This document shows positions 9,735 through 49,146 of a DNA stretch of 49,694 nt, piece by piece. The position numbers and the translations under genes were made by a program. The stretch covers positions 9,110 through 58,803 of the forward strand of contig DFZE01000203.1 of NCBI GenBank assembly GCA_002382065.1, written 5' to 3'. The stretch's first letter is position 1, and every line of letters begins with the position of its first letter. The DNA comes from Desulfobacteraceae bacterium UBA4064. Lineage in GTDB: Bacteria > Desulfobacterota > Desulfobacteria > Desulfobacterales > Desulfatirhabdiaceae. A model generated the notes under the pieces. It searched no databases. It saw only the letters and a list, made by a program, of their open reading frames with translations, and was not told the DNA's origin.

Positions 9735-9752
9735 TCCCATGCTGTCAGCCAA

Positions 9753-9894: not shown

Positions 9895-9912
9895 TAAAAG
9901 GAGAATCGGAAA

Positions 9913-24887: not shown

Positions 24888-26129
24888 ATGACACCACAAT
24901 CCATTCGGGTCATTGCAGGCATCCTTCTGGCCGAAATCTGCAGCATGGCCGGATTTTCAACTTTTGCGGCCACGCTGGTGGAATTTTCCCGGTTGTGGGG
25001 GCTCAGTTCAACCGGGGCTGGCTGGATCAGCAGCGCGTATTTTATGGGATATGTTCTGGCTGTACCGGTTCTGGTGGGGTTGACCGACCGGATCGATTCG
25101 CGAAAAATTTATGTGGCCGGATCCGGTTTGGGGGTCATTGGCGGAATCGGCTTTGCCTATTTTGCCACAGACATGACAAGCGCGATGTTTTTTCGGGCAT
25201 TGTCCGGCATGTCGCTTGCCGGGACCTATATGCCGGGGCTGCGCATCCTGACCGAACGTCTCAGTACAAAAACACGGCTTCGCGTGGTGCCATATTATAC
25301 CGCCGCGTTCGGGGTCGGTGTCAGCCTGTCGTTTCTGATGAGCGGGTGGATTGAACAGGCATTCGACTGGCATATTGTCTTTATAACAGGCGGGCTGTTC
25401 TCTGTTGCGGCAGTTGTTCTGTTGTGGATCGGAACAGCCGGGATTCCCATATCCGACCCGATCCAGGCCCGACGTTCCAACCGGCATCCGCTGGATTTGC
25501 GTCCCGTGTTTGCCAATCGGGATGCACTGGCGTATATACTGGCCTATAGCGGCCACTGCTGGGAACTGTTCGCCCTTCGCGCCTGGCTTCCGGCATTTCT
25601 CCTGTTTGCATGGAACCAGTCACAAACCGGAGACCCCGGAACCGTTCTGACCCGGTGGTCCACCCTGATCGTGCTCATCGGGGTCCCGGCCAGCATCATT
25701 GGTGCAGCGGTTGCGTCCCAGCATGGACGACGGCGATTGATCAAAAAAATTGCAATTGCCAGCGTTGTGCTGGGTATTCTTGCCGGGCTGTCCGGAACCA
25801 TGCCGTTCTGGATTTGTGTAACGGTGCTGTTTGCCTACAACTTTGCCGTTACCGCAGATTCCGGTGCATTGACGACCGGAGCACTGGCAGCCTCGCTCCC
25901 GGGCGAGCAGGGCGCCACCCTTGCCGTTCATTCCATACTGGGGTTTATCGGCGGGGTCATCGGCCCTCTGGCGGTCGGGCTGGGCCTGGATATGGAAGGC
26001 GGTATCACCACGATCAATGCCTGGTACCTGGGTTTTCTGTTCATGGCGGCCGGATCGGGTGTTGCCGCGCTGGCTATTTTGATACTGGAGGGTCATGCGG
26101 GTGAAGCTTCCTTATTGAGACGTGAGTAG
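24888..26129 (+). CDS. MFS transporter
   Basis: About 12 predicted TM segments. GLTDRIDSRK loop between TM2 and TM3 (MFS signature-like). Confidence 0.8.
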   Translation: MTPQSIRVIAGILLAEICSMAGFSTFAATLVEFSRLWGLSSTGAGWISSAYFMGYVLAVPVLVGLTDRIDSRKIYVAGSGLGVIGGIGFAYFATDMTSAMFFRALSGMSLAGTYMPGLRILTERLSTKTRLRVVPYYTAAFGVGVSLSFLMSGWIEQAFDWHIVFITGGLFSVAAVVLLWIGTAGIPISDPIQARRSNRHPLDLRPVFANRDALAYILAYSGHCWELFALRAWLPAFLLFAWNQSQTGDPGTVLTRWSTLIVLIGVPASIIGAAVASQHGRRRLIKKIAIASVVLGILAGLSGTMPFWICVTVLFAYNFAVTADSGALTTGALAASLPGEQGATLAVHSILGFIGGVIGPLAVGLGLDMEGGITTINAWYLGFLFMAAGSGVAALAILILEGHAGEASLLRRE

Positions 26130-26991
26130 CCATTCGCATCTCCCGACCGTGAAAGATCTCCTTTTTCAATCGGATTGTATAGTTGATCGGTGCATGGTCG
26201 GAAAGGAATTCCGGAGGGTCGGTCAATCCCCGTATACTGCTGGATTCAGGGGCTGTACGCATATCATCCTGCAGACAGATCGGGATGCCTGCATGACAGA
26301 AATCAAATGGAATGGCGGAGGGTGGTACGGTTGTGATGATGTCACGGTTGTTTTCAAACCGGTAAATTCGTACATGTTTCAATGAATCTGCAAAAATGGA
26401 ATCCCCTGCTTTGGGCGCGCCAAACGTGTAAATTGCCTTGGCCGGAAACAGTGAGGCTGCCAGAATGGCCAATGCCCCTCCCAGGCTGTGGCCCGTAAAA
26501 TACAGGGGAAGATCGATGGTAAAAAGAATGGGTTCAATTTTCTGCCATAGCCCCAAAAAATCCGCCTTGAACCCGGTATGAACCGAACCACCCCTCGGCC
26601 AGCAGCTCTGGATTGCTTTCATATTGGACCACCATCCCTCAAACCCCGTGGTTCCCCGAAACACCAACGCCGCAAATGACCGGGCTGATCTGTTTTGTGA
26701 CCGGACCAGAGAACAATAATTGGTTCCGTTGGCAAACGTTTCGACTTCCTGAAGCCCCACGCCATGCAGAATTTCGCATCGGGTCGGAATTGGGGCGTCA
26801 GATCCACATTCCTGCGGACATTGTCTGTAAATCAACCGTGAAAGCTCACAAAGCCACCAGGCATTGATCAAGCTGCAATCCGACGCGTCTGTCTCGAACA
26901 ATGGCCGATGAAGAACATCGAAATACCGGCTGGATAACCAGGGGCGAAGCAGGGCATTCCATGAGGGGTCAATGGATTCTGTTTCTATCAT
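26074..26991 (-). CDS. class 3 lipase family alpha/beta-hydrolase
   Basis: Nucleophile elbow YFTGHSLGGALAILAASL. Start overlaps the upstream stop (ATGA). The 3' 56 nt overlap the convergent MFS gene. Confidence 0.7.
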   Translation of the reverse strand: MIETESIDPSWNALLRPWLSSRYFDVLHRPLFETDASDCSLINAWWLCELSRLIYRQCPQECGSDAPIPTRCEILHGVGLQEVETFANGTNYCSLVRSQNRSARSFAALVFRGTTGFEGWWSNMKAIQSCWPRGGSVHTGFKADFLGLWQKIEPILFTIDLPLYFTGHSLGGALAILAASLFPAKAIYTFGAPKAGDSIFADSLKHVRIYRFENNRDIITTVPPSAIPFDFCHAGIPICLQDDMRTAPESSSIRGLTDPPEFLSDHAPINYTIRLKKEIFHGREMRMATHVSIRKLHPHDPPVSK

Positions 26992-27716
26992 TTGATGGTA
27001 ATCCGGATCGATGGTTTTTCCTGATAGCGAACCCGCATCAGTTTCATATCAATTTCAATTTCCCGGTTTTTCAGATTTCGAAAGGTGATTTCCCGGATTT
27101 TTTCCTTTTCTCCGCTGAAAAACGCCCTGTCGATTTTCCTTTTCAGTTTCAGTGCATCCCGGTATTCAAAAAAATCAAACAGCCGGCGACCGATAACAAC
27201 ATTCGGTTCCGGTAACTGAAGATGGATTGCGGCTGACGGGTTGATATAGCAGACAGCGTATGTGTTATCGATCAGGATGACCTTTCGGGCGTCAGAATCA
27301 ACAAAGCTTTTGAAAAGTTCGTATGTCATGGTGGATCGGCCTGCGTTTTCATTGGTGTTCTGTTTGAATGATTCCAGCTCCTGTTTCAGGGTGTCATGCT
27401 GTATCGTCAATTTGTCGAGAGCTTCCTGGATGTGCAGCGTGTGATCCCGGGCCTGATGATTGTCAATACGCGCCGTCTCCAGTTCGTCCTGCAGCCGTTT
27501 CTGTTCCAGAACGGCCTGATGGTTCTCCGAGACCAGTATCTCATTTTGGCGGTTGATTTCCTGATTGACGATGTCCTGTTGTTTGGATTGTTCAAGAATA
27601 CTGTCATAATTTGTCTGAAGACGCAGCATCTCCTGTTGCTGTGACAGCAGTGATATTTCCATTTCCTGGATCATTGTCACAAGCTCTTTTTTGGTTTTTT
27701 GCATCAGATCTGTCAT
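26988..27716 (-). CDS. coiled-coil protein with C-terminal PAS-like domain
   Basis: N-terminal ~120 aa are Q/E/L-rich coiled coil. The C-terminal VILIDNTYAVCYINPSAAIHLQL...GRRLFDFF...IEIDMKLMRV resembles a PAS fold. Confidence 0.5.
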   Translation of the reverse strand: MTDLMQKTKKELVTMIQEMEISLLSQQQEMLRLQTNYDSILEQSKQQDIVNQEINRQNEILVSENHQAVLEQKRLQDELETARIDNHQARDHTLHIQEALDKLTIQHDTLKQELESFKQNTNENAGRSTMTYELFKSFVDSDARKVILIDNTYAVCYINPSAAIHLQLPEPNVVIGRRLFDFFEYRDALKLKRKIDRAFFSGEKEKIREITFRNLKNREIEIDMKLMRVRYQEKPSIRITIK

Positions 27717-28000
27717 GTTTCACCCCGCATCCTGTTAATAAAAATGATCATGAAGCTATCATGATAAATATTGATATTCAACACAAAAAATCATATATTT
27801 ATTATATATTTTTGGACACCAAATTAAGATTTTAATCTGAAAAATAATTGATATATTAATATCAAAATAAATATATTTAAATAAATTCAGACTCTTTTGG
27901 ATATTTTTATGAATTCGAAAATATCACTTTACAGCGCCATCAATATTATCTATATTTGTACAAATAACGTACAGAATCAAATTATGGCAAAGAGGATCAA

Positions 28001-28306
28001 ATGGCTATTTTCAAGGAAGAAGACGATACCAAAAGGATGATTTTCAATATTCGATATGATCTGGCCAATCGTCTGCTAAGTGCCAGGGAAGACGCGCGAA
28101 GCATGGGAAAACGCCTGGATATAGAAACCGCAATCAATAAGGCGCTGGAAAAATTTTTGCAAAAGGCGGAGAAGCGAATACGGGAAGAAAAAAAAAAGCA
28201 GGGCCAGTTTCTTCAGCCAATTGACAAAAAAGCGGATGACCCTGTTTTGACAGCCTCTGAAAACGATGTAAATGCAATCAATATGGATGACAGGATGCAG
28301 CAATAA
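28001..28306 (+). CDS. small hypothetical protein, possible ribbon-helix-helix fold
   Basis: KRMIFNIRYDLANRLLSAREDARSMGKRLDIETAINKALEKFL has a strand-helix-helix pattern. GAGGA RBS. Sits behind a 280-nt AT-rich spacer. Confidence 0.45.
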   Translation: MAIFKEEDDTKRMIFNIRYDLANRLLSAREDARSMGKRLDIETAINKALEKFLQKAEKRIREEKKKQGQFLQPIDKKADDPVLTASENDVNAINMDDRMQQ

Positions 28307-28338
28307 AAAAATATACCTTCTACAGAAAGGAACGACCA

Positions 28339-28680
28339 ATGAAAAAAAATGAAGTCAGTGTCAAATGTAAACTGGAAGCCGATGCCGTCGCCAACCTGCT
28401 TTCAGACATGGCCAACAGTTTTCGTGAAGGAAAAGTGGTCATTCAGAAAAAAAGTTCCTTTGTTACCCTGAATCCGGCCGGAGAAATCAATGTTGAAATC
28501 GAGGCGGTCGAAAAGAAGGGTAAACAGAAAATTGAAATTGAGTTAAGCTGGAAGGAAGAGAAATTTTCGGATAAAGATGCGGATGATATTCGGGTGACCA
28601 GTGATGAACCCTGCCTGGATGAGTCCATGCCGGATGAAGATCAGCCAGAAAGAAATCCGATCCTGTATCGTCAGTGGTAA
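28339..28680 (+). CDS. amphi-Trp domain protein
   Basis: EADAVANLLSDMANSFREGKVVIQKK..VTLNPAGEINVEIEAVEKKGKQKIEIELSWKEE has the amphipathic helix, beta hairpin and conserved ELxW layout. Acidic tail. Confidence 0.65.
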   Translation: MKKNEVSVKCKLEADAVANLLSDMANSFREGKVVIQKKSSFVTLNPAGEINVEIEAVEKKGKQKIEIELSWKEEKFSDKDADDIRVTSDEPCLDESMPDEDQPERNPILYRQW

Positions 28681-28752
28681 TGCCTGAAACCGGATGACAG
28701 CTTTTTGTTTGTGGCTTCGGATGGCACAAAGGCGGCTGACTGAATTGTCTGA

Positions 28753-28894
28753 GAGTCTGTTTGAAGATTCTGGATCAGGCCCGATAACAAGGCGGAAAGC
28801 GCCTCTAAAGCGGAGCATATACGGAGTATGTGAGCATTTTGAGGTGCTTTCCAACGCAGTTAGCGGGCCTCAGACGTGATCTTCAAACAGGCTT
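28753..28894 (+). repeat. 142-nt rod-like repeat, copy B
   Basis: See copy A at 9753..9894. Terminal pairing AGTCTGTTTGAAGAT / ATCTTCAAACAGGCT includes a C-to-T change that keeps pairing as G-U. Confidence 0.7.
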
Positions 28895-29007
28895 TGACCG
28901 GATCATCCCGGTATTGGAATCCGAATCGATTTATTTCGACGTTCACCCCGATACCGGTTGCAACCCAAACGGCTTCATTGCAGATTCACGTGAAGGCGGC
29001 GCAATAA

Positions 29008-29433: not shown

Positions 29434-29466
29434 ACGGGTTTTCCTTTTCAAAAAAAGTGTGAAAAA

Positions 29467-29564
29467 GGCTGAAGGCTGAAGGCTCTGCATACCGCATTCA
29501 GGCCGATCAGCCGTCTGACGGTCAGACTGCATTCTCAATACTCTCTACTCATGTCTCAATGCTG
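29467..29564 (+). repeat. GGCTGAAG modular intergenic repeat, copy 2
   Basis: GGCTGAAGGCTGAAGGCT..CCGCATTCAGGCCGATCAGCCG, then hairpin GTCTGA-CGG-TCAGAC, then CATTCTCAATACTCTCTACTCATGTCTCAATGCTG. Confidence 0.7.
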
Positions 29565-30897: not shown

Positions 30898-31012
30898 CGC
30901 ATAACCTGTGTTTTTGAGATTGATGAATTGTGGACCGGTATGGCATGGTTGCCTAACCCCTCCTCTGAAAATTCTCCTTTCATCATATAAAAATTTCTTC
31001 GATCATCTCCAA

Positions 31013-31046
31013 CCGAAAACGCTCCCCCAATCTTTATCCTGAAAGC
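31013..31046 (+). promoter_or_regulatory. conserved 34-nt motif, copy a
   Basis: CCGAAAACGCTCCCCCAATCTTTATCCTGAAAGC aligns without gaps to 38761..38794 and 49107..49140. Confidence 0.55.
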
Positions 31047-31074
31047 CATACCGGATATTCACCCTAACGCACAA

Positions 31075-31103
31075 CAATTAGGAACGTATTAGATTTTTGT
31101 TAG
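31075..31103 (-). promoter_or_regulatory. Pho-box-like heptamer array oriented toward the PIN-PhoH gene
   Basis: The minus strand reads CTAACAA-aaat-CTAATAC-gttc-CTAATTG: three 7-mers at exact 11-bp spacing. Confidence 0.5.
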
Positions 31104-31173
31104 GAAATTGTGACCGCCGCCGCTTTTCCCATTATTCATGATCTGTGGACGGACGGAGCATTTTCATCAAGTC

Positions 31174-31213
31174 CTAACCGGATATTAATCCATCCCTAAC
31201 AATTCGGACATAA
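31174..31213 (+). promoter_or_regulatory. Pho-box-like heptamer array oriented toward the PstS-like gene
   Basis: CTAACCG-gata-TTAATCC-atcc-CTAACAA-ttcg-GACATAA with 11-bp periodicity. Confidence 0.5.
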
Positions 31214-31310
31214 AATGCTCATGGTTCATTCAATCCCACAGGATTTCCGGCCGGACCTGATGAGTACCGGAATAACCTTTTCTGGTCAACACATGAAATT
31301 GGGGCGTGGT

Positions 31311-32363
31311 ATGGCAAGAAGACTGATCATCTGTCTTATGATCGTTTCGGGGATGCTGGTTTCAGAATTTTCAATGGCGCAACCCATTCTGAATGGTGCG
31401 GGCGCCACGTTCCCCAGTCCATTGTATCGGAAATGGATCGATGCGTACCGCCAGGTTTCGGATACCAGAATCGATTACCGGGAAACCGGTTCCGGGAGGG
31501 GGATTCAGCTTTTTCTGGATCAACAGGTGGATTTTGGGGGAACCGATGTATTTCTGGCAGATGAAGAAATTCAAAGATGTCCCCGGGAAATCATTCATAT
31601 CCCCACCTGTATGAGTGCGGTAGCGGTCATATTCAATCTGCGCCACAACACGGATATCAGGCTGTCACCGGATATGCTTGCCGATATTTTTATGGGACAC
31701 ATTACCCGATGGTCTGACAAAAGGCTTGTCAGCATCAATCCCGAACTTTCCGGTGTTGATCTGAATATCACGGTGATTCACCGGTCAGACAGCAGTGGAA
31801 CGACCCATATTTTTTCAGATTATCTCTCAAAAGCCGACAAAACCTGGTCCATAAATATGGGATGCGGGACATTGCTGAAATGGCCGGTTGGGCTGGGACT
31901 GGAAGGTAATCCCGGCGTGACGGAATACGTCAAAAAAGTGCCTGGAAGCATCAGCTATGTGTCGCTGAATTATGCGGTTGAAAACAATCTGCCGGCAGCG
32001 TTGGTTCAAAACAGGACAGGCAACTTCATTCGGCCATCCCGCCAATCTGTCTCACTGGCCGGGGATGTGGCTGTTCCAGAGGATCTGCGCATCATCATAA
32101 CCGACACGTTGGCCTGCGGGGGTTATCCCATCAGCGCATTCACCTACCTGCTCGTTTACAAAGAGCAGGGATATCTGAATCGATCCCGGGAAACAGCCAA
32201 GTCTCTGGTCGATTTCCTTCTGTGGATTACAACAAAAGGCCAGTCGTTTACCGAATCGATGAATTATGCCCATCTTCCCCCGTCCGCTGCGCCAATTGTC
32301 GCGAAAGCCATTCATTCCATCATGTACAAAGGAGATATGATTTGCATATCGGAAAAACCGTAA
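31311..32363 (+). CDS. pstS: phosphate ABC transporter substrate-binding protein (PstS family)
   Basis: Signal peptide MARRLIICLMIVSGMLVSEFSMA followed by NGAGATFPSPLYRKWIDAY and HRSDSSGTT. Start is uncertain: ATG 31311 is preferred, and 31293 and 31215 are also in frame. Confidence 0.8.
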   Translation: MARRLIICLMIVSGMLVSEFSMAQPILNGAGATFPSPLYRKWIDAYRQVSDTRIDYRETGSGRGIQLFLDQQVDFGGTDVFLADEEIQRCPREIIHIPTCMSAVAVIFNLRHNTDIRLSPDMLADIFMGHITRWSDKRLVSINPELSGVDLNITVIHRSDSSGTTHIFSDYLSKADKTWSINMGCGTLLKWPVGLGLEGNPGVTEYVKKVPGSISYVSLNYAVENNLPAALVQNRTGNFIRPSRQSVSLAGDVAVPEDLRIIITDTLACGGYPISAFTYLLVYKEQGYLNRSRETAKSLVDFLLWITTKGQSFTESMNYAHLPPSAAPIVAKAIHSIMYKGDMICISEKP

Positions 32364-34489
32364 ATGGCAGGTGGATGTGGGGTAAAACCGGACAGTATCT
32401 GTTTCGAATCATGTGGATTATGGCCGTTTTGTTTACCGTAGTTGTCAAACATGAATCCCATGCGTCAGAATTACAAGTAACGATTGGCATCAGTGAATTC
32501 GAGCCGTTATATTGTATTTCCGATCAGGTCATCGATTCCGGAATGATCGTGACCGTGCTGCGGAAGATTGCCACGGAAGAAAACTGGCATATCCGGTTGG
32601 TCCCCGGCACACGCGAAAAAACACTTGAAAGACTGGAATCCGGTGAAGTCGATATTGCGGCGATGATACCCTACAAACGACAGCCGGACCGAAGATTCGA
32701 TTTCAATCAGGAAACCCTTTTGTCAACCTGGGCCCAAATCTATTGCGGCGAAACACTGGAAATACAATCCTTTCTGGATCTGGCCGGTCGATCCATCGGC
32801 GTCATTCGGGAAGATGAATATGCCAGAGCCATACGAAATACGGTTGCCGGGTTGAATATTTCCTGCAGAATTGTGGAGTTCAATCATCCTGTTGAAATAT
32901 TCCAGGCGATTCAGAAAGGCTGGATCGATGCGGGTGTTGTGGACCGTTTTCAGGGTCATCTGAATGCCAAAATGGATGGCGTCAAACAGACATCCATTAT
33001 CTTTTCACCCATTGAACTCCGCCTGGCGTCGTTGAAAAACCAGAACAGGAACCTCCTGGATGCCATCGATTACGGTCTGAAAAAACAGAAAAATGCGCCA
33101 GATTCCGTATATCATCGGGAACTCGGCAAAATCATTGGCGGACTGGATGATTCTGCTGCTTACCGGCGCCTGATGGTGTGGCTGATTGCCTGTTCGGGCT
33201 TTCTGATATTCACCGGTATGGCGGCAGTCCTGTTGCGCTATCAGGTCAGAAAAAAAACCGCGGAGTTGTTACAGAATCAACAGGTTCTGAAGGATGAAAT
33301 TATTGCCAGACGCAGCGCCGAAGAACGGTATAAAAGCATTTTTGAAAATACGGGTACGGCGACCGTTCTGATTGAAGAGGACATGACCCTGTCCATGATC
33401 AACGAAAATGCCGCCAAACTGCTGGGTTACCCCAGGGAACAGATAGAAGGCAAAATGAAAACCGGTGATTTTATCACCGGTGAAGTATTTCAAATGGTCA
33501 GCCGGTTTCACCGGGACAGACGGCGGGGAGATCCAAATGTACCCACCGAATACGAAGCCCAACTGATCAATAGAAACGGCGATAAAAAAGAAATCTTTTT
33601 CCGGGTGGGCATGCTTCCGGAAACCCGGACCAGTATCGCCTCCCTGATTGACATCACGGACAAAAAACAAATGGAACACCAATTGCGACAGGCTCATAAA
33701 CTGCAGGCCATTGGCGCCCTGGCAGGTGGCATCGCACATGATTTCAACAATGTTCTCACCGGAATAATGGGATATGCGGAAATGGCGCTTAAAGACCCGG
33801 AAAATCCATCCCTGCTGACAAAACGGATCGGCCATATTCTGACCGCCGGCGCCAGGGCCCGGGAACTGATCCGGCAGATTTTGACATTCAGCCGTCAAAA
33901 CGAGCACAGGGTCGAACCGGTTATCATGAACCATATCCTGGAAGAAACACTCCGGCTGATTCAGGCCACTGTTCCGGGCACAATTACCATAAAAACCAGA
34001 AACGATGCGCCCGCCGGAATGATTATGGCAGATCCCACCCAGATTCATCAGGTTATTCTGAACCTCTGCACCAATGCCATTCAGTCCATGGGGAACAATC
34101 GGGGGGAATTGATGGCATCTCTGAATACCGTTGTATTGAATGGCGCGGCGGTTCGATTCCAGCCCCCGCTGAAGCCCGGAAAATATGTGCAACTGACCAT
34201 CCGGGATACCGGCCAGGGAATGAGCCCTGACATCGTCGATCGGATATTCGATCCGTTTTTTACCACCAAAAAGCCGGGCGATGGTACGGGAATGGGGCTT
34301 TCGGTTGTTCATGGTATTGTAAAGAGCCTTCAGGGCAGCATCGCAGTTCACAGTGAATACGGAAAAGGCTCGATATTTGATGTTTATATTCCGGCTGCAG
34401 ACAGCCATATCGGTCAACCCGGTGTATCACACAGGATCGATGCGGTTGCTGTCGAACCAAAGATGCTTTCCGGCCAATGCGAACACTGA
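32342..34489 (+). CDS. sensor histidine kinase (periplasmic SBP_3-like domain, TM, PAS, HisKA, HATPase) lacking a receiver domain
   Basis: GGIAHDFNNVLTGIMGYAEMAL H-box, LNLCTNAIQSM, DTGQGM, GTGMGLSVVHGIV. TTG 32342 is 7 nt after AAGGAG, and ATG 32375 is an alternative start. Confidence 0.8.
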   Translation: MHIGKTVNGRWMWGKTGQYLFRIMWIMAVLFTVVVKHESHASELQVTIGISEFEPLYCISDQVIDSGMIVTVLRKIATEENWHIRLVPGTREKTLERLESGEVDIAAMIPYKRQPDRRFDFNQETLLSTWAQIYCGETLEIQSFLDLAGRSIGVIREDEYARAIRNTVAGLNISCRIVEFNHPVEIFQAIQKGWIDAGVVDRFQGHLNAKMDGVKQTSIIFSPIELRLASLKNQNRNLLDAIDYGLKKQKNAPDSVYHRELGKIIGGLDDSAAYRRLMVWLIACSGFLIFTGMAAVLLRYQVRKKTAELLQNQQVLKDEIIARRSAEERYKSIFENTGTATVLIEEDMTLSMINENAAKLLGYPREQIEGKMKTGDFITGEVFQMVSRFHRDRRRGDPNVPTEYEAQLINRNGDKKEIFFRVGMLPETRTSIASLIDITDKKQMEHQLRQAHKLQAIGALAGGIAHDFNNVLTGIMGYAEMALKDPENPSLLTKRIGHILTAGARARELIRQILTFSRQNEHRVEPVIMNHILEETLRLIQATVPGTITIKTRNDAPAGMIMADPTQIHQVILNLCTNAIQSMGNNRGELMASLNTVVLNGAAVRFQPPLKPGKYVQLTIRDTGQGMSPDIVDRIFDPFFTTKKPGDGTGMGLSVVHGIVKSLQGSIAVHSEYGKGSIFDVYIPAADSHIGQPGVSHRIDAVAVEPKMLSGQCEH

Positions 34490-34515: not shown

Positions 34516-34555
34516 ATAACTGATTATTAACAATAAACTAATCAAATCCTAATAA
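34516..34555 (+). promoter_or_regulatory. Pho-box-like heptamer array upstream of the GAK-type operon
   Basis: ATAACTG-atta-TTAACAA-taaa-CTAATCA-aatc-CTAATAA with 11-bp periodicity. TTAACAAtaaaCTAATCAaa is almost identical to 45916..45935. Confidence 0.55.
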
Positions 34556-34678
34556 TGTTTTGTTATACCCTTCCAAATTGACAATTATAGTCGTGACATC
34601 AATCGGAGATCCCTTCGATTGCGAGCCAAAAGCATTATTTTGACAGTCCCATCATCAATTGCATCCAGGAGATTTGCC

Positions 34679-35227
34679 ATGAAAAAGAAAGGGAACAAAG
34701 AGGAGATTCTTGTCTATGGAGAAAATGCCGTCGTGTTTCTCCAGAGTATCGTTGATGGTTTATCCAGAAAGCGGGTTGAACCCTCATCGGGATTGATTGA
34801 CTTTTCACGGCTCAAAAAACTGAAAATCTCTGTAAAAAAGAAATTTGAACAGCCCTATGTCAAATGCAAAGTCAAGTACAAAGACAACGAGGACATCCTG
34901 CAGGATCTGGTTGAAGGCTCTGAACCGGATACGGAAAAGCCGGATTACGGTCTTCTGAAAAAGCGGATGAAAAACACATTTCAAAGTATCGGCGACCGTC
35001 TGACAAACGGCAGTTTTCCATCCAGTCTGGAAATGGATCTGTTTTGTAAAAACGCCAGACTGATGACCACTTATGACGGTTATGGGGACAGCATGTATAC
35101 GGAATTTCTACAACTGATCGAAGCTTTTCAGGATGCGTTTCACAAGGATGATATCAAAACATGTCAGGAAAAATATCTTGAAATCAAGGATATGAAAACA
35201 GCCTGTCATCATGACGAAAAAGGCTGA
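34679..35227 (+). CDS. XXXCH-domain small protein (GAK-system type)
   Basis: Ends ...LEIKDMKTACHHDEKG. The N-terminal half resembles an amphi-Trp-like fold (AVVFLQSIVDGLSRKRVE...KLKISVKKK). ATG 34679 is 8 nt after AGGAG. Confidence 0.6.
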   Translation: MKKKGNKEEILVYGENAVVFLQSIVDGLSRKRVEPSSGLIDFSRLKKLKISVKKKFEQPYVKCKVKYKDNEDILQDLVEGSEPDTEKPDYGLLKKRMKNTFQSIGDRLTNGSFPSSLEMDLFCKNARLMTTYDGYGDSMYTEFLQLIEAFQDAFHKDDIKTCQEKYLEIKDMKTACHHDEKG

Positions 35228-35326
35228 AGACTGAAGACTGAAGGGACCGCATTACCGCATTCACGCGTGGCAGCCGTTGGACAGGCAGGCTGTTTCTCAA
35301 TACGCACGGCTCATGCCTCAATACTG
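35222..35326 (+). repeat. GGCTGAAG modular intergenic repeat, copy 3
   Basis: GGCTGAAGACTGAAGACTGAAGG..CCGCATT..CAGCCG, a hairpin, then TTTCTCAATACGCACGGCTCATGCCTCAATACTG. Its first GGCTGA provides the stop codon of the upstream gene. Confidence 0.7.
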
Positions 35327-35341
35327 AATCAAAAGAAAGCA

Positions 35342-36496
35342 ATGGAATTGTTGAAATCCAAAACCGAATGTATTCCACTGTATCCGCAAAAGTTTTCTGA
35401 AATCATCACGGAAAATGATGAAAAAAATTTTGCAAAGATAACATCCACCACTCTGTCACCGGAACAAATTGAACAGATTTTGACCCCCGCTGTCATTTAT
35501 CCCCGACAAAAAACCGTTCTGGCAGTCCACTGGCATCCCGAATTCATTCCACTGGATCTGATCGAAACGCGCATCCACAATATGTTCCCCAACTTGACCA
35601 CACAGTTGATCATTCCCACACAGCACAATGTCATGATGACGTTTCATGAATACGCCGGGGTGGAAGTGGATGCCTATTCCCGGGGATTCAACCAGAAAGT
35701 CCAGTTGTTGCTGCATTTCAATGCCAAAAAGGTGGAAACGGCACATGTGTTGAAATCCATGCTGGCATACACCCTGAAATATCGCCAGAACCAACTGAAC
35801 GAGTTCATTCACACCCTGATCAAACCCAATGAAGAACGAATTGGGCTGGCTGCAGAAGAAACCGGCGCAACAGAGGACTGTATCCGCTTTGTCCGGATTC
35901 AAATCCGCAAATTGCATGAACTGATCGAACGACATTTCGACCGATTGCCGACCGAGATGTTCAAAAACAAGCTGGTGCGGGATTTTCTGGATGAATACCG
36001 GCCGGAATATGGGGATGCCTGGATCAATCGGGCACAAACCTTTCTTCATGCCGTCAAGCAGATTGTCAAATCCAATTTTTCCATGCGGTATTTTTACAGG
36101 ACTTCCGAAATTATCGAGGAAGCGAGATCTCTGGGGGGCAGAATTGTGATCCCGCACCCGGAACAGTTCTGGCCCATTCTTCTGGCCGATTATGATGTGG
36201 ATGGATATGAGGTCTGGAATCCGCAGTCCCAACGATACACCGAATTTCTGATATCCGTCGTCAACCGGAAAAATGCTCAGGTGACTGAAAATCGTGAAAA
36301 ACTGCTGCTGTTCATGGGTGACGACACCCATATGAGTGAAAAGGTGAGAGACCCGAATAAACAGGATCGGGAAAAAGTCAGCCGTGAAATCGGTATTCAA
36401 CCGGCATGGGAGGATATGGACATCCGGAAAGCACTCATTACCGCCCACATGAATCGCAGGCTGGTGATTGAAGAATACAAAAACCGGTTGGGGTGA
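35342..36496 (+). CDS. hypothetical protein, possibly a PHP-like metal-dependent phosphoesterase
   Basis: Ordered His/Asp motifs AVHWHPEF, IVIPHPEQ, GYEVWNPQ and FMGDDTHM are reminiscent of PHP-domain motifs. Start set at ATG 35342, because the track extension lies in repeat copy 3. Confidence 0.4.
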   Translation: MELLKSKTECIPLYPQKFSEIITENDEKNFAKITSTTLSPEQIEQILTPAVIYPRQKTVLAVHWHPEFIPLDLIETRIHNMFPNLTTQLIIPTQHNVMMTFHEYAGVEVDAYSRGFNQKVQLLLHFNAKKVETAHVLKSMLAYTLKYRQNQLNEFIHTLIKPNEERIGLAAEETGATEDCIRFVRIQIRKLHELIERHFDRLPTEMFKNKLVRDFLDEYRPEYGDAWINRAQTFLHAVKQIVKSNFSMRYFYRTSEIIEEARSLGGRIVIPHPEQFWPILLADYDVDGYEVWNPQSQRYTEFLISVVNRKNAQVTENREKLLLFMGDDTHMSEKVRDPNKQDREKVSREIGIQPAWEDMDIRKALITAHMNRRLVIEEYKNRLG

Positions 36497-36663
36497 GTTT
36501 GGCGATGTGCCGGGAAGGCGGGCTGACTGACGGCCGAATGTATGAAATATGAATATGAAAATGGTAAAGGGGAAATGAGCAGCAGGAAGGCAACCCGACC
36601 GCCTGACACTGCCCACTGACCACTGACCACTGACCACTGATTTTCACGCTGAGGAGACATGAC

Positions 36664-36939
36664 ATGACAGACAACGAGAAATTCGATCATGAGTCCATCC
36701 AGGACCGACAAACCATCAGAAAGTACTTCAATTCATTGATTGAAGGGCTTGAAAACGGGCGAATCGTTTTTTCATCGGAAAAAGACAATGTGCTGTTAAC
36801 ACCGTCAGAGCTGATTCGGTTTTCGATTAAAACCAAAAAAAAGCCGGGGAAATCCAAACTCACCATCAAACTGGCATGGGATGATGCAGCCGTTATCACT
36901 TCAAGAGAAAAAAGCAATGCCATCCAGATCGCATCATGA
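36664..36939 (+). CDS. amphi-Trp domain protein
   Basis: QTIRKYFNSLIEGLENGRIVFSSEKDNVLLTPSELIRFSIKTKKKPGKSKLTIKLAWDD has the same helix/hairpin/Trp layout as 28339..28680. Confidence 0.6.
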   Translation: MTDNEKFDHESIQDRQTIRKYFNSLIEGLENGRIVFSSEKDNVLLTPSELIRFSIKTKKKPGKSKLTIKLAWDDAAVITSREKSNAIQIAS

Positions 36940-38587
36940 GGCTGCCTTAAAAATTGATGAGATACGGGAAAATTTCAAATTTCTCTGGATAGAGATATGC
37001 GGACAGATCAAATCAACCAGAGAGTTGTTTGATCATCCCGGTGCCCGGCTTTTCAATAAAATCTGTTCCCGGGATGATTATATCGACAATCTGAAGACTA
37101 CTGTTGAAAATGCCTGCTTTTCCCGTATTCACAGCCTTGAACCCCTTGACAGGGAAGAAATCAATACAATTCGCTCCATCCATATCATCTGTGTCAATCT
37201 GGAACGCATTGCCGATTTTTGTGTCAATATTGCCCGGCAACTGGAATATCTGTCCGATCCGGCATTCATGCACCGGTTTGATTACAATTCCATGATTCAG
37301 GAAATTGAGGAGAATATACGCACCATTTTTTCCGCGTTTGACGACAGAAGCCTCGTGGTCGCCTTAAAAATCTGCAAATCGGAATACCGGTTGGACCTGC
37401 TCTACAAAACGGAATTCGACCGTATCATGGTCGAACTGAATGAAGGTCAATCGGCCCAGAATCTGGTTACGGTCCTCTTTATTTTCCGGTATCTCGAACG
37501 GATCGGTGATTCGCTTCTCAATATCGGAGAGGCCCTTCTGTTTCTGGTTGTCGGTGAAAAAATCAAGATTCACCAGTTTGAAGCCCTTCAAAAAACACTG
37601 ACCGCGTCCGGTTACTCGGGCAAATTCTCGGAAATTGATTTCAAATCCATTTGGGGGTCTCGTTCCGGTTGCAGAATCAGCCTGATTGCACAAAAGGATG
37701 CATCCCGGAATAGATCCCAGGGAATCTTCAAGGAGGGGAATCTGAATAAAATCCAGCGGGAGAAGGATAATCTAACCCGATGGAACATCATTTACCCGGG
37801 GTTGACGCCCAGAATTTTCGGGTATCATGAGAATGACGAAACCGCATCGCTGTTGGTAGAATTTTTGCCCGGATGCACCATGGAAGAGGTTTTCCTGTCT
37901 GCCGGCACCGATATTGTTCAAAATGCCCTGTTTCTGATGGAACAGGTCATTTGGGATATCTGGGAACAGACCCGGATTCTGGAGCCCATCCCGGTCAATG
38001 CCATGCAGCAGTTGTCAAGCCGGCTGGAAGACACACGCCGGCTGCATCCAGACCTGTTGTGGTGCGAAAAGCAGTTGGGATCACTTTCAATTCCCTCCAC
38101 CATCAGGCTGATTCAGCAATGCGCCGGGATTGAAAGCGAAATCAGGGCGCCTTTTTCGGTTTTTTGCCACGGTGATTTCAACGCCAACAATCTGGTGTAT
38201 GATCATTCCACCCAGCGCATTCATTTTATCGATGTCTATCGGTCCCACCAGGGAGATTACATCGGTGATGCCGCTGTTTTTCTGGTCTCCAATTTCAGGT
38301 TGCCGGTGTTTGAAGTGTCGGTCCGCGAACGTCTGAATGAGGTGATCGCCCAGTTCCTGGATCTGGTTTTCCGGTTTGCCAAAACCCATGATGACACCAC
38401 CTTCCAGATTCGACTGGCTCTGGCGCTCAGTCGAAATTTTTATACCTCCATACGTTTTGAACACAATTCCGATTTTGCAAAGGAAATGGTTCTTCGGTCC
38501 CATTACCTGATGGAAAAAATCGTGAATCATTCATCCGCCGATTGGGCAGCCTTTTCGTTTCCGGAAGACATTCTGTTTTACGGATGA
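36917..38587 (+). CDS. PhoU-domain (two repeats) / aminoglycoside-phosphotransferase-like kinase fusion protein
   Basis: PhoU repeats VNLERIADFCVNIARQ and RYLERIGDSLLNIGEAL. Kinase catalytic loop FCHGDFNANNLVYD and IHFIDVYRS. The start could also be ATG 36881. Confidence 0.65.
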   Translation: MPSRSHHEAALKIDEIRENFKFLWIEICGQIKSTRELFDHPGARLFNKICSRDDYIDNLKTTVENACFSRIHSLEPLDREEINTIRSIHIICVNLERIADFCVNIARQLEYLSDPAFMHRFDYNSMIQEIEENIRTIFSAFDDRSLVVALKICKSEYRLDLLYKTEFDRIMVELNEGQSAQNLVTVLFIFRYLERIGDSLLNIGEALLFLVVGEKIKIHQFEALQKTLTASGYSGKFSEIDFKSIWGSRSGCRISLIAQKDASRNRSQGIFKEGNLNKIQREKDNLTRWNIIYPGLTPRIFGYHENDETASLLVEFLPGCTMEEVFLSAGTDIVQNALFLMEQVIWDIWEQTRILEPIPVNAMQQLSSRLEDTRRLHPDLLWCEKQLGSLSIPSTIRLIQQCAGIESEIRAPFSVFCHGDFNANNLVYDHSTQRIHFIDVYRSHQGDYIGDAAVFLVSNFRLPVFEVSVRERLNEVIAQFLDLVFRFAKTHDDTTFQIRLALALSRNFYTSIRFEHNSDFAKEMVLRSHYLMEKIVNHSSADWAAFSFPEDILFYG

Positions 38588-38740
38588 TGGCGGCGCATCA
38601 GGTGTTGAAACCGAGCCGGAACAGAAAATGTTTTGGGTTTTGAGTGTTGAGTTTTGGGTTGAAAGCAGTACATGTCATTTTCATATGTTTGGGTTAACAA
38701 TATGGAATGATTCATGATCGTTCACAGTAACACGCATTGC

Positions 38741-38799
38741 ATATAGCTTTTAAGATAAGACCGATAACACACCCAAAATCTTTATCTTGAAAGCTATAT
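38741..38799 (+). promoter_or_regulatory. long hairpin carrying 34-nt motif copy b, immediately upstream of the ATP-grasp gene
   Basis: ATATAGCTTTTAAGATAAGA pairs with TCTTTATCTTGAAAGCTATAT (about 19 bp, one bulge, one G-U) around the loop CCGATAACACACCCAAAA. The hairpin ends 18 nt before the ATG at 38818. Confidence 0.6.
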
Positions 38800-38817
38800 C
38801 ATGCAGCAAGGATCATT

Positions 38818-39693
38818 ATGCCTCACATAGCCGTTATTGGAAACTATGGCGGATGGTCATCCGAACACCTGGCAGATTGTGTCGCCAACGTTACCGGAAG
38901 ACGTCTGCTGGTGGATATGAACAGTGTCTGCCTGGATTTATCCCATGAAAAGGTCTGGTTTGAAGGCGTCGATCTGACCCGGCTGGATGCCGTCATCATC
39001 AAAAAGATCGGACCCTATTACTCCCCCCATCTTCTGGACCGTCTTGAAATTCTGCGTTTTCTGGAACACAAAGGCGTTCGTGTTTTTTCCCGTCCACTGA
39101 ATATCCTTCGGGTGCTTGACCGGCTCAGTTGCACCATCACGCTGCGCATGGCCGGCATTCCCATGCCGGAAACGGCCATCACGGAAGATACCAGTCATGC
39201 ACTCAGATTGATCCGGGATTTTCAGGAGGCAGTACTCAAACCACTTTACTCGACCAAAGCCAGGGGAATGCAGGTGGTTCGATATGATAAAGATGCACAT
39301 CTCGATGTGGAAATATTCAAACAGGACAATCCGATCATGTATATCCAGAAAAAACTGGATATCCGGGGAAAAGATTTGGGCATCGTGTTTCTGGGCGGGG
39401 AGTATGTCACCACATATGCCCGCTGTAACGACAGCGCATCCTGGAATACATCCACGGAAAATGGGGGCCGGTACATGGCCTATGACCCCGGCCCCGAAAC
39501 CATTGAAGTGGCCAGAAAGGCCCAGTCCCTTTTTGATCTCGATTTCACCAGTGTGGATGTGGTGGAAACGGAAGACGGGCCGCTGGTGTTCGAGGTCTCC
39601 GCATTCGGGGGATTCAAGGGCATGGAAATCGCCCGTAACATGGATGGCGCCAAACTGTATCTTGACTATGTGTTAAAAAGGATTGAATCATGA
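38818..39693 (+). CDS. RimK-like ATP-grasp ligase (GAK-system type)
   Basis: AVLKPLYSTKARGMQVV, YIQKKLDIRGKDLGIVFLGGEYV, FTSVDVVETEDGPLVFEVSAFGGFKG. Confidence 0.8.
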   Translation: MPHIAVIGNYGGWSSEHLADCVANVTGRRLLVDMNSVCLDLSHEKVWFEGVDLTRLDAVIIKKIGPYYSPHLLDRLEILRFLEHKGVRVFSRPLNILRVLDRLSCTITLRMAGIPMPETAITEDTSHALRLIRDFQEAVLKPLYSTKARGMQVVRYDKDAHLDVEIFKQDNPIMYIQKKLDIRGKDLGIVFLGGEYVTTYARCNDSASWNTSTENGGRYMAYDPGPETIEVARKAQSLFDLDFTSVDVVETEDGPLVFEVSAFGGFKGMEIARNMDGAKLYLDYVLKRIES

Positions 39694-40766
39694 TCGCAAA
39701 TGACTATATCCGGGAAAATCTGGCCAAACGAATCCGGTCCAACTACCCGGTTGAGGATGAGCTTAGGCTTCAGTTTGGCAATTGTCATATTCAGGTTCAG
39801 TCCAATTCCGAATCGGTCATAGCGGAGCTGAAAACCTATTTCAGTCCGTTTTTGGAGAGGCAGCCCGCGCCAGACTGTCTTGTCATTTCTGTGTTTCAGG
39901 CGGATGATTTTTCCGCGGATATTCCGTTTACGGAAAAAATGCCCGACCCCGGAAAATCCAAAATCAAGGAAGAATATGCCGATATCCCTGGCGGCCGAAT
40001 TGTCCGGAAACAATTGACCGGTATGGTGTTCATTTTTGGTGACACGGATCACATCGCCATCGGTCCGTGTATGGAGAATCTGAATCAGGTGGTCAATTTT
40101 ATCAATAACCGCTACATTGAATGGCTGATTTGTCGCGGTGGGATTCTGGGCCATGCCGCAGGCATTAGACTCCATGACAACGGAATCGCACTGGCCGGTT
40201 TTTCCGGCATGGGCAAATCCACACTGGCCCTGCATCTGGTCAGCAGAGGCGCAGACTTTGTCAGCAATGACCGCCTGATTCTGGAAAAGAGCGAAACCGG
40301 TATCCGGATGCATGGCGTTGCCAAACTGCCCCGCGTCAATCCGGGGACAATATTGCACAATCCGGATTTGAAGGGACTGTTGTCCGATGGTGAATATGAG
40401 CGTTTTTCGGCTTTGTCACAAGAGGATATCTGGAATCTGGAACACAAGTATGATGTGCCCATTGACCGCTTTTTTGGAGCCAACCGCTTTGTTTTGAGCT
40501 CGGAGATGGATGCCCTGGTCATCCTCAACTGGCAGAGAAATTCTCAACCTGCAGCCATGCGGCCTGTGGATATTGAACGTCGCAGGGACCTTTTGCCGGC
40601 TTTCATGAAATCCACCGGCCTCTTTTTTCTGCCAAAACGACCCGAACAAATCACCAACCCAACGGAATATGCCTACATCAATATGCTGAAGAAGCGTCCG
40701 GTGTTTGAAATCTCGGGCGGTGTGGATTTTGAGGCTGCGGCCAAATACCTGATTGGCAGAATTTGA
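39690..40766 (+). CDS. HprK-related P-loop kinase (GAK-system type)
   Basis: GIALAGFSGMGKSTLALHLVSRGADFVSNDRLIL matches the HPr kinase C-terminal P-loop region. ATGA overlap with the ATP-grasp gene. Confidence 0.7.
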   Translation: MIANDYIRENLAKRIRSNYPVEDELRLQFGNCHIQVQSNSESVIAELKTYFSPFLERQPAPDCLVISVFQADDFSADIPFTEKMPDPGKSKIKEEYADIPGGRIVRKQLTGMVFIFGDTDHIAIGPCMENLNQVVNFINNRYIEWLICRGGILGHAAGIRLHDNGIALAGFSGMGKSTLALHLVSRGADFVSNDRLILEKSETGIRMHGVAKLPRVNPGTILHNPDLKGLLSDGEYERFSALSQEDIWNLEHKYDVPIDRFFGANRFVLSSEMDALVILNWQRNSQPAAMRPVDIERRRDLLPAFMKSTGLFFLPKRPEQITNPTEYAYINMLKKRPVFEISGGVDFEAAAKYLIGRI

Positions 40767-40790
40767 AAGATCACATTTGAAATACCCTGT

Positions 40791-41981
40791 ATGCACCTGA
40801 ACATTCAAAAATCAGTAAAAATCCCGGACCGGGCCAGAATGGCCCTGTTTAAAAAATGTCCGGAACTGGGCCCCAAAATCCTGTTTTTCAGCGGCGGAAG
40901 CGCACTGAGAAAACTCTCTCAGGACCTGATTCATTACACCCACAATTCCATCCATATCATTACCCCGTTTGATTCGGGTGGCAGTTCCGCCACATTGAGA
41001 ACCGCCTTTGACATGCCGGCAGTGGGGGACATCCGAAACCGCCTCATGGCCCTGGCAGACCAGACGTTTCAGGGCAATCCCGAAGTTTACACCCTGTTTG
41101 CCCATCGGCTGCCCCAGCAGGCAAACCCCGTCGAACTGCGCGACACACTGGAAGCCATTATCAGCGGCAATCATGCGTTGATCCACGGCATTTCCCATCC
41201 CATGAGAAAAATCATCCGGCATCATCTGAATTTTTTTTACCAGAACATGCCGGAATCCTTTGATCTCCGGGGAGCCAGTATCGGAAATCTGGTTCTTGCC
41301 GGCGGATATTTCAGTTATGACAGACATCTCGATCCGGTCATTTACATTTACTCCAGCCTGGTTCAGGTACGGGGGACGGTGCGACCGGTTGTCAACACGC
41401 CGGTTCATATGGCGGCCAAACTGAAGACCGGAGAAATGGTTCTGGGGCAGCACCGGATCACCGGAAAGGATTGCCCGAATCCCGCAGACCGAATTGAAGA
41501 AATATATCTGACATCGAGCCTGAATCAATTCGATCCGGTGGATGTCGCCATCCGTGAAAAAATAACGGCGCTGATTCTGGATGCGGATGTGATCTGTTTT
41601 CCGATGGGCAGTTTTTTTTCCAGCATTCTGGTGAACGTTTTGCCCCGGGGCGTCGGCCGGGCGGTCAGGCAGAACCCCTGCCCCAAAATCTTTATCCCCA
41701 ACATGGGAAATGATCCCGAGCTGTTGGGATATTCCATCATGGAACAGATTCATATCCTCATCAGATATCTCCTGAAAGACTGTACCGACCAGTCACCCGC
41801 CCACCATGTCTTGACCCATATCCTGATTGACCGGTCTCACAGGGATTATCCAACAGCTCCGGAAACTGAAACCCTGGCCCGGAAAAGTATTCAAATTCTG
41901 GGCATGGACCTGGTTCATCCGGATGATGCATCGATCATCGATGAAAAAAAGCTGATCCCGATTCTTTTGTCTCTGGCATAG
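40791..41981 (+). CDS. CofD/YvcK-like (2-phospho-L-lactate transferase superfamily) protein (GAK-system type)
   Basis: KILFFSGGSALRKLSQDL and IITPFDSGGSSATLR correspond to the two N-terminal CofD/YvcK signature stretches. Confidence 0.75.
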   Translation: MHLNIQKSVKIPDRARMALFKKCPELGPKILFFSGGSALRKLSQDLIHYTHNSIHIITPFDSGGSSATLRTAFDMPAVGDIRNRLMALADQTFQGNPEVYTLFAHRLPQQANPVELRDTLEAIISGNHALIHGISHPMRKIIRHHLNFFYQNMPESFDLRGASIGNLVLAGGYFSYDRHLDPVIYIYSSLVQVRGTVRPVVNTPVHMAAKLKTGEMVLGQHRITGKDCPNPADRIEEIYLTSSLNQFDPVDVAIREKITALILDADVICFPMGSFFSSILVNVLPRGVGRAVRQNPCPKIFIPNMGNDPELLGYSIMEQIHILIRYLLKDCTDQSPAHHVLTHILIDRSHRDYPTAPETETLARKSIQILGMDLVHPDDASIIDEKKLIPILLSLA

Positions 41982-42368: not shown

Positions 42369-42779
42369 ATATGGTCAGCAAAACAGATGAAAAGCTAAAG
42401 CTGAAATTATGAATACCCTGATAGAAGAGATGAACCAGATGGGTCTATCACGGAACGGGAAACCGGTACGTATTCGAATCGGATCACGATCAAGGCCTTG
42501 AAATTTGGGGTGACAATTTTTTTGTAACATTTGTGGTTTTGTAACGCTGGCAGGGAACACTGATGTGATCTTTTGACAGTACTCAGGGTTCATTTTGCCT
42601 GCACACATGGCCTGATTTTCACGCAGTTAAAGCGATAACCAGGTCTATAGGGCGCGCCATTTTTAAAAGGCTGTAAGGAGCCTGTCTAACGAAAAAATTA
42701 ATATGATTTAAATTTTTCCGGGATAGGCTGAATAAAATACGGGTGAGACCTAAAAATAATTCTTTCGAAAGGGGAATTC

Positions 42780-45664: not shown

Positions 45665-45915
45665 TCACCGGATCGGGACGAATGGAAAATCCATGATCAC
45701 CAGCGGTACCTGTCTGTATTTTTCCTGTATTTCGGAAAACTCGCTCCGGAAGGTTCGTGTTTACATGATTCGCGAACAGTATCGCACAGCGGACATTTCT
45801 TTGTCGTTTCAGGCATTGGAACAGAAAATCCGCTGTTCTTGATCCATCCCGCGGAAAACAGGCCATGTTCAACATCCGGATAACCACCATTCGGCCTGTT
45901 CGGTCTCACCCGAAA

Positions 45916-49140: not shown

Positions 49141-49146
49141 GATATT

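Follow-up and report, generated by a model that had tools for sequence, protein, structure and literature searches.

What is a widespread operon of "function unknown" used for, and when does the cell need it? This question is raised by a 49,694-nt stretch of DNA from Desulfobacteraceae bacterium UBA4064 (assembly GCA_002382065.1, contig DFZE01000203.1, positions 9,110 to 58,803), referred to here as the window. It carries a seven-gene GAK operon behind an array of heptamers spaced 11 bp apart. A preliminary description of the sequence had read this array, and others in the window, as Pho boxes and had assigned the GAK operon to a Pho regulon. This assignment is supported by the sequence tests reported below. 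We put at about 85% the probability that the arrays are Pho boxes, i.e., tandem 11-bp binding units for the organism's phosphate response regulator of the PhoB/PhoP family. The estimate is based on the 11-bp architecture, the Pho genes in the window, the conservation of the arrays at GAK operons, the synteny with pst-phoU, a metagenome scan, the promoter geometry and the PhoB motif of Desulfovibrio vulgaris. If the arrays are Pho boxes, they give the GAK operon its first physiological context. Its function would become testable, as the operon would be switched on when phosphate runs out.

The array at the GAK promoter

The four heptamers upstream of the GAK operon start at 34516 (ATAACTG), 34527 (TTAACAA), 34538 (CTAATCA) and 34549 (CTAATAA), at a spacing of exactly 11 bp. 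The array (ATAACTGattaTTAACAAtaaaCTAATCAaatcCTAATAA) lies 26 bp 3' of the stop codon of a histidine kinase gene and 124 bp 5' of the ATG at 34679. All four heptamers were found where the preliminary description had placed them, as were the four upstream of the alkaline phosphatase gene (45916 TTAACAA, 45927 CTAATCA, 45938 ATCACAA, 45949 TGAACAA). The near-identity that it had noted between the two promoters was also recovered: the 20-mers 34527-34546 and 45916-45935 agree at 19 of 20 positions, and a repeat finder reported 31 nt at 84% identity (family D19). Only the GAK array has the TAAY core in four of four units within the window. With a matrix derived solely from other genomes, its trimer score (33.0) was also the highest.

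An extended -10 element is predicted downstream of the fourth box (Table 1), and transcription would start near 34575-34578. The GAK promoter of the window was aligned with those of its close relatives L085-L087, L006 and L009 (L numbers denote loci and contigs from other genomes and metagenomes). Mean identity was 52%, and the invariant columns fall mostly in boxes 3 and 4 and in the -10 element. A TGn(T/C)AT element is kept in five of the six sequences; the counterparts are TGtTATTTG in L085, TGcCATAGT in L086, TGcCATCAT in L087 and TGcCATGAT in L006.

The same geometry is found at other arrays. A -10-like hexamer stands exactly 8 bp past the last box in 5/5 strong arrays of the window. Besides the GAK start, transcription is predicted to begin at about 31222 for the PstS-like gene, 31054 (minus strand) for PhoH2, 45976 for alkaline phosphatase and 49207 for phnC. 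Among 30 related arrays upstream of GAK operons, TAnnnT occurs 8-9 bp past the last strict box in 10 and 19-20 bp past it in 9, while other offsets occur about once each. Arrays with the longer distance contain one more weak box in between. By analogy with PhoB, boxes placed 8-9 bp before the -10 element would form an activator site standing in for the -35 element.

Frequency compared with chance

Chance was assessed with a minimal rule, the recurrence of the TAAY core at a fixed spacing on both strands of the window. At 11 bp, 11 pairs and 4 triplets were counted. All other spacings from 6 to 21 bp gave 0-3 pairs and 0-1 triplets. The control consisted of 500 shuffles in which dinucleotides were preserved inside 200-bp blocks, so that local A/T richness was kept. 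At 11 bp, these shuffles yielded 2.55 +/- 1.6 pairs (maximum 9) and 0.026 triplets (maximum 2). The TAAY core at three of four phased positions, anchored at both ends, was found at a spacing of 11 bp only, at 34516 (GAK) and 49147 (phnC). Nine of the 11 pairs fall in five named promoters. The extra pairs, at 45991 (+) and at 6094 (-, upstream of an FAD oxidoreductase gene), were set aside, as their number equals the chance expectation.

Arrays at GAK operons of other genomes

The preliminary description had proposed a search for similar arrays at orthologous GAK operons. Homologues of the HprK-related kinase B were aligned, and the alignment was used to scan one genome per species. The resulting 80 loci belong mostly to Desulfobacterota, together with single genomes of Ignavibacteria, Zixibacteria and SAR324. 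Most of them share the gene order XXXCH, 384-aa protein, Amphi-Trp, PhoU-kinase, grasp, HprK-B, CofD.

Enough upstream sequence was available for 58 loci, and TAAY triplets were searched on the coding strand before the first GAK gene. At 11-bp spacing, a triplet was found within 450 bp in 18 of the 58 loci and within 1100 bp in 22. Every other spacing tested gave 0-1 loci. Two-box or lineage-variant arrays occur in about 14 more. The consensus of the boxes in these related loci is YTAAY(A/C)N with A-rich spacers. In L005, whose GAK operon is split, one array precedes the XXXCH gene and another the Amphi-Trp/PhoU-kinase block.

Variants of the box follow lineages. The 11 Desulfovibrionales loci examined comprise 5 with an in-phase GTAAC-N6-G(C/T)AAC, 2 with GTGAC-N6-GCGAC, 1 with 10-bp spacing and 3 without a usable upstream region. 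GTCACA units precede the GAK operon in L042, L071 and L078.

Links to phosphate genes

The arrays stand upstream of core Pho genes of the same lineage. In the window, these are the genes for PstS, alkaline phosphatase, phnC and PhoH2. In a Desulfococcus locus (L026), the array TTAACACgttcCTAACACgaatCTAACAA is followed after 8 bp by TACCAT and then by pstS-pstC-pstA-pstB-phoU; the next gene, 99 bp past phoU, is XXXCH of the GAK operon. In 11 loci (L020, L026, L028, L030, L035, L039, L041, L050, L070, L075, L079), the GAK operon is immediately preceded by pstCAB-phoU in the same orientation; pstS is also included in L026 and L070. In L010, the array precedes a substrate-binding protein whose best match, UgpB, is below the family cut-off.

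Metagenomes were scanned with the pattern YTAAY-N6-YTAAY-N6-CTAACAA-N8-TANNNT. A match was usable if at least 400 bp followed downstream, and it was scored when a pst, Pho or GAK gene of the query set started within 700 bp on the same strand. Such a gene followed 46 of 102 usable matches, compared to 3 of 106 on the divergent side, which served as control. The positive matches comprise 39 PstS-type genes, 5 pstC/A genes, 1 XXXCH gene and 1 low-molecular-weight phosphatase gene.

Weighing the reading as Pho boxes

The presence, statistical excess, phasing, conservation and pst/Pho association of the arrays are observations. Several points nevertheless weigh against reading them as Pho boxes. 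A search for PhoB/PhoR found neither in the window, whose first 26 kb (1-26 kb) hold unrelated metabolism genes. Under the rules used, 22 of the 58 loci are array-less; 7 of these follow pst-phoU, which suggests co-transcription with it. The core of the boxes, YTAAY(A), differs at two positions from the (CT)GTCAT of E. coli. The matrix and the regular expressions were derived from the data, and although independent of the window, the tests with further loci and with metagenomes inherit the assumption of a TAAY core. The literature search found no paper on the GAK system and no binding or expression record for any GAK operon. Finally, the boxes are A/T-rich and of low information content. In a sigma-70 consensus scan, box 2 (TTAACA) passes for a -35 element and AATAAT within box 4 for a -10 element, so that the exact GAK -10 stays a prediction.

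Alternatively, the arrays could be operators of a different OmpR-family regulator, for instance the partner of the orphan histidine kinase encoded at 32222-34489, and the genes behind them a local island instead of a classical PhoB regulon. Apart from the lack of PhoB in the window, this is favored by the fact that tandem repeats about 11 bp apart are common to all OmpR-family regulators. Moreover, the kinase gene stands between the PstS gene and the GAK operon, it directly precedes the GAK genes in L005 and L007 with an array of its own, and a PstS and kinase pair behind an array recurs in the metagenome contigs L089 and L135. We consider this explanation unlikely. Many unrelated contigs have this array in front of a complete pstSCAB(-phoU) operon, which is the hallmark of a master phosphate regulator and makes such a regulator a far more likely binder than an OmpR-family partner of the kinase. 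The PhoB box of D. vulgaris has the same 11-bp period and TnAC core. Even if another OmpR-family protein bound here, the genes under its control would still form a phosphate regulon.

It is very unlikely that the boxes bind a Pho regulator which represses the GAK operon, so that the operon is off under phosphate limitation, or which has no effect on transcription. Many PhoB sites of E. coli are described as transcriptionally inert (PMC10294691), and boxes over the -35 region could occlude RNA polymerase. The geometry, however, is shared with the promoters of pstS, alkaline phosphatase and phnC, targets that are activated wherever a Pho regulon has been studied. This geometry fits activation with boxes replacing the -35 element. 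No good -35 element lies outside the boxes, and in several genomes the GAK operon stands in line with pstSCAB-phoU.

Least likely of all, the heptamers would be ordinary A/T-rich promoter DNA (-35-like TTAACA, -10-like TAATAAT and UP-element-like A tracts) with coincidental likeness to each other. The intergenic regions have a GC content of 39-46%, and the match of the sigma-70 scan (34527-34556: TTAACA, 18-nt spacer, AATAAT) agrees with the consensus at 10 of 12 positions; shuffled versions of this 500-bp region average 1.2 such matches. As a whole explanation, plain promoter DNA is rejected because the excess is limited to 11-bp spacing and is not reproduced by local shuffles, because a simple promoter has no need of a third or fourth repeat, because three to four phased units are kept across orders while the flanks diverge, and because the pattern retrieves pstS operons in metagenomes (45% vs 3%).

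Proposed mechanism

With the arrays read as Pho boxes, the following course of events can be proposed. Under phosphate limitation, the phosphorylated regulator would bind three to four units head-to-tail (consensus YTAAYAa with an A/T-rich 4-bp spacer). The units would occupy the place of the -35 element, and the bound regulator would recruit sigma-70 RNA polymerase to the -10 hexamer 8-9 bp past the last unit. At the GAK promoter, recruitment would be to the extended -10 element TGtTATACC. The GAK operon would then be activated together with the PstS-like/histidine-kinase operon and the genes for PIN-PhoH2, alkaline phosphatase and phnC, and probably OlsF. The identity of the binding protein, the activation and the response to phosphate limitation are what we infer from these sequence features.

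The GAK operon and its possible role

The window contains co-located genes for grasp_GAK, HprK-related kinase B, the CofD-like protein, the XXXCH protein and the Amphi-Trp protein, the set by which membership in the GAK system is recognized. Two of the GAK proteins have more than 1,600 matches each in a protein database clustered at 90% identity, and the nearest named homologues are from Desulfatirhabdiaceae genomes (order Desulfobacterales). Cultured carriers of the GAK genes include Desulfonema magnum 4be13, Maridesulfovibrio sp. FT414, Pseudodesulfovibrio karagichevae 9FUS, Desulfovibrio caledoniensis lm2024, Desulfonema ishimotonii and Desulfatiferula olefinivorans. In the literature, no transcriptome was found for phosphate-limited cells of an organism with GAK genes. 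The GAK genes are unmentioned in a phosphate-limitation study of D. alaskensis G20 and in lipidome studies of sulfate reducers.

The 384-aa protein matched no Pfam or NCBIfam family and has no sequence relative in the PDB. Its invariant motifs are HWH, H95, H125, H272 and DDTH. The AlphaFold2 model has a mean pLDDT (predicted local distance difference test) of 88.8 and contains an inserted helical domain. The top Foldseek matches of the model are the PHP-family phosphoesterases 3e0f/3o0f and RNase AM (9etk), with a probability of 1.0, E-values of about 1e-5 and TM-scores of 0.40-0.55. The protein is predicted to have the structure of a metal-dependent phosphoesterase of the PHP fold. Together with the PhoU-domain kinase, it fits a phosphate-related role of the GAK operon.

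More tentatively, and at less than even odds, the GAK system could be a dedicated, so far unrecognized pathway by which anaerobic Desulfobacterota and members of some other phyla respond to phosphate starvation. In such a pathway, the PhoU-domain kinase would couple Pst/PhoU signalling to an enzymatic module of ATP-grasp ligase, HprK-like kinase, CofD-like phosphotransferase and PHP-fold phosphoesterase, which might modify the small, abundant Amphi-Trp/XXXCH proteins or else serve to synthesize or recycle a phosphorylated metabolite. What is available in support of this proposal covers co-regulation and pst-phoU synteny, not the activity of the GAK proteins.

REP/MITE-like intergenic repeats of about 100-170 nt occur at 7365-7563, 29461-29564 and 35216-35326. 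The first contains an 8-bp tandem array (GACGGTYG, about 17 copies, 7405-7540). The last lies inside the GAK operon, at the junction of the XXXCH gene and the gene for the 384-aa protein, where it creates a spurious upstream GTG start at 35267.

Other arrays and features of the window

Table 1. GAK operon, putative Pho-box promoters and predicted -10 elements of the window
Feature	Position	Strand	Evidence or sequence
GAK operon, seven genes	34679-41981	+	
XXXCH-domain protein	34679-35227	+	TIGR04358, 80 bits (cut-off 40)
384-aa PHP-fold protein (predicted)	35342-36496	+	predicted structure and fold search
Amphi-Trp protein	36664-36939	+	PF20068, from gene calls
PhoU/APH-like kinase fusion	36917-38587	+	Pfam PhoU and APH
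grasp_GAK	38818-39693	+	TIGR04356, 433 bits (cut-off 300)
HprK-related kinase B	39690-40766	+	TIGR04355, 501 bits (cut-off 200)
CofD-like protein	40791-41981	+	TIGR04357, 521 bits (cut-off 340)
GAK promoter, putative Pho-box array	34516-34555	+	four 11-nt units: ATAACTGatta, TTAACAAtaaa, CTAATCAaatc, CTAATAA
GAK promoter, predicted extended -10	34561-34569	+	TGt TATACC (-10 hexamer TATACC, preceded by TG), 8 bp past box 4
PstS-like gene promoter	31174-31216	+	CTAACCG, TTAATCC, CTAACAA, 8 bp, -10 TAAAAT (31211-31216)
PIN-PhoH2 promoter	31061-31114	-	weak GTCACAA, CTAACAA, CTAATAC, CTAATTG, 8 bp, -10 TAGGGT (31066-31061)
Alkaline phosphatase promoter	45905-45969	+	weak CTCACCC, TTAACAA, CTAATCA, ATCACAA, TGAACAA, 8 bp, -10 CAAAAT (45964-45969)
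phnC promoter	49147-49200	+	TTAACAG, (AACATTA, non-box), TTAACAC, CTAACAA, 8 bp, -10 TAAAAT (49195-49200); phnC start 49332
OlsF-like gene promoter (weak)	42686-42718	+	CTAACGA, degenerate ATTAATA, then -10 region

Further arrays had been described at the PstS-like, PIN-PhoH, phnC and OlsF-like genes (Table 1). The PIN-PhoH array is present on the minus strand (31103-31075) as described. At the PstS-like gene, the boxes from 31174 on are present, but the heptamer GACATAA, counted as a fourth, overlaps the -10 hexamer. The phnC array likewise starts at 49147, but its second heptamer, AACATTA, is not a box. At the OlsF-like gene, box 1 at 42686 was recovered, while box 2 is degenerate and the third heptamer, TTAAATT, belongs to the -10 region. 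These fourth and third heptamers are read as -10 regions because the -10 element follows the last box at 8 bp.

Several of these promoters have counterparts in relatives. The PstS-type array recurs nearly identically in L086 and L087 and in the metagenome matches L104 and L109; the PstS protein of the window matches TIGR00975 with 303 bits. L007 encodes a phosphatase 78% identical to the alkaline phosphatase of the window. The two promoters are conserved from box 1 through CAAAAT, and the similarity is gone directly after the -10 element. The OlsF promoter of the window, scored alone with the matrix, is below threshold. Orthologous OlsF promoters align column for column and have two good boxes (CTAATGG/CTAACAC in L086, CTAACGG/CTAACAT in L087); box 2 of the window has decayed. 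No RNA family was found by Rfam at the gathering threshold in the whole window, and the arrays and leaders are thus not known riboswitches.

A lone TTAACAA before the ATP-grasp gene had also been listed, at 38693-38699. It sits at 38694-38700 and, as a single box, carries no weight and is put down to chance. It was considered as an internal Pho promoter and rejected, as the 230-bp gap at this junction is filled by a repeat, whereas the corresponding gap measures 23 bp (median) in 71 loci. This repeat, D3 (40-57 nt, GACCGATAACGCACCCCCAATCTTTATCCTGAAAGCNATA), occurs at 30994-31050, 38742-38798 and 49088-49144 (+), with a weak fourth copy at 27755-27772 (-). Three copies adjoin Pho-box promoters or Pho genes. 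None of the 80 related loci has the repeat, and a long hairpin (-22.4 kcal/mol, z = -5.8) is formed by one copy only, the one before the ATP-grasp gene. As a shared regulatory or RNA element it was therefore set aside, and D3 is regarded as a genome-specific repeat. Another direct repeat of 156 nt (family D2, 89% identity) occurs at 9752-9907 and 28752-28907, 19 kb apart.

The region 31215-34489 encodes a PstS paralogue followed by the orphan histidine kinase, not by pstCAB. In this kinase, a periplasmic SBP_bac_3 domain is combined with PAS and HisKA/HATPase domains. This PstS-associated kinase may be a Pho-induced sensor of phosphate or organophosphate. Further upstream, a 101-aa open reading frame and a second Amphi-Trp protein (113 aa) adjoin a divergent PAS protein and a class-3 lipase (28001-28680 and 26074-27716). 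In L085-L087, this block directly precedes the XXXCH gene. About 6 kb with the low-molecular-weight phosphatase, PhoH2, PstS and kinase genes appear to have been inserted into the ancestral GAK locus of the window. The very A/T-rich spacer 27717-28000 has TAAY words at a spacing of 12 bp, not 11 bp.

Arrays were also found before other kinds of genes. The unassigned metagenome matches include a phosphate-selective porin O/P, a glycosyltransferase resembling monogalactosyldiacylglycerol (MGDG) synthase, four GT4-type glycosyltransferases (Pfam confirmed one; the other three have near-identical N-termini) and two PHP-domain proteins. The gene for one of the latter heads a GAK-like cluster. Genes for GT4-type or MGDG-synthase-like glycosyltransferases follow arrays in L087 (2968, -) and in the metagenome contigs L092, L111, L151, L172 and L154. 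In L092, L111, L151 and L172, the array before the GT4 gene is nearly identical (CTAACyTTTTCCTAACTTTACGCTAACAAAA). These arrays, together with the OlsF-like ornithine-lipid gene, are consistent with an induction of phosphorus-free glycolipid synthesis by phosphate starvation. Moreover, arrays precede genes for methyl-accepting chemotaxis proteins in L005 (4971, -) and L066 (2875, -), and chemotaxis may thus be under Pho control.

Comparison with known systems

Compared to the GAK system defined in NCBIfam/TIGRFAM (TIGR04355-04358 and Amphi-Trp), the markers of the window are all above the curated cut-offs and stand in the common gene order. A link to phosphate is added here. It is based on the conserved Pho boxes, the adjacency and synteny with pst-phoU (pstSCAB-phoU), the PhoU-domain kinase and the PHP-fold phosphoesterase in the operon.

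PHO boxes are defined as 11-nt tandem units with 7 conserved and 4 variable nucleotides (PMC4415409), which agrees with the Pho-type architecture of direct repeats claimed in the preliminary description. At least two tandem 11-nt direct-repeat units are expected; four are found at the GAK promoter and three to four at the PstS, PhoH2, alkaline phosphatase and phnC promoters. Judged by geometry, they take the place of the -35 element at a fixed short distance before the -10 element. In E. coli, CTGTCAT units in place of the -35 element likewise form head-to-tail 11-nt units of 7 conserved and 4 A/T-rich nucleotides, with two to four units per promoter. The kinds of genes behind the arrays (pstS, alkaline phosphatase, phn, phoH) are shared with E. 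coli. If counting begins at the G of GTCA, the last unit is as far from the -10 element as in the E. coli pstS promoter.

The PhoP box of B. subtilis consists of TT(A/T/C)ACA hexamers about every 11 bp, a consensus that our literature search did not confirm. With this reservation, TTAACA is among the box variants found here, and four or more repeats per promoter are usual in both. In contrast to B. subtilis, the host is a Gram-negative member of the Desulfobacterota; the likeness is one of motif only and says nothing on the kinship of the regulators.

A comparison can also be made within the phylum. The box of PhoB (DVU1083) in D. vulgaris Hildenborough, identified by DNA affinity purification on microarrays (DAP-chip) and electrophoretic mobility shift assay, is a direct repeat of (c/t)GTnAC with an 11-bp period, e.g., AGGTTACAGCATAGTTAC (PMC3333781, PMC6456213). 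The DAP-chip peaks include, in one replicate list, pstS, a PhoU-family gene and a phoH-related gene, and DVU1475 of the PhoU family is a PhoB target. The arrays of the window share the 11-bp period and the TnAC core with the D. vulgaris box (e.g., GTTACagcataGTTAC). They differ in the first base of the core, which is C/T here and G in D. vulgaris, and in the number of units, three to four here compared to two. The G-type variant GTAAC-N6-G(C/T)AAC of the Desulfovibrionales GAK loci (5/11) is of the same type as the D. vulgaris box. The sequence comparisons therefore support a standard Pho box with a lineage-specific consensus, a textbook element that implies no new mechanism. What is new is the GAK system as a probable conserved member of the Pho regulon, often physically joined to pstSCAB-phoU. 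The operon is thereby assigned to a regulon, and a lead to its function is obtained. Furthermore, the consensus YTAAYA in 11-bp phase with a -10 element at 8-9 bp could be used to annotate phosphate regulons in genomes and metagenome-assembled genomes of Desulfobacterales, where none has been defined experimentally.

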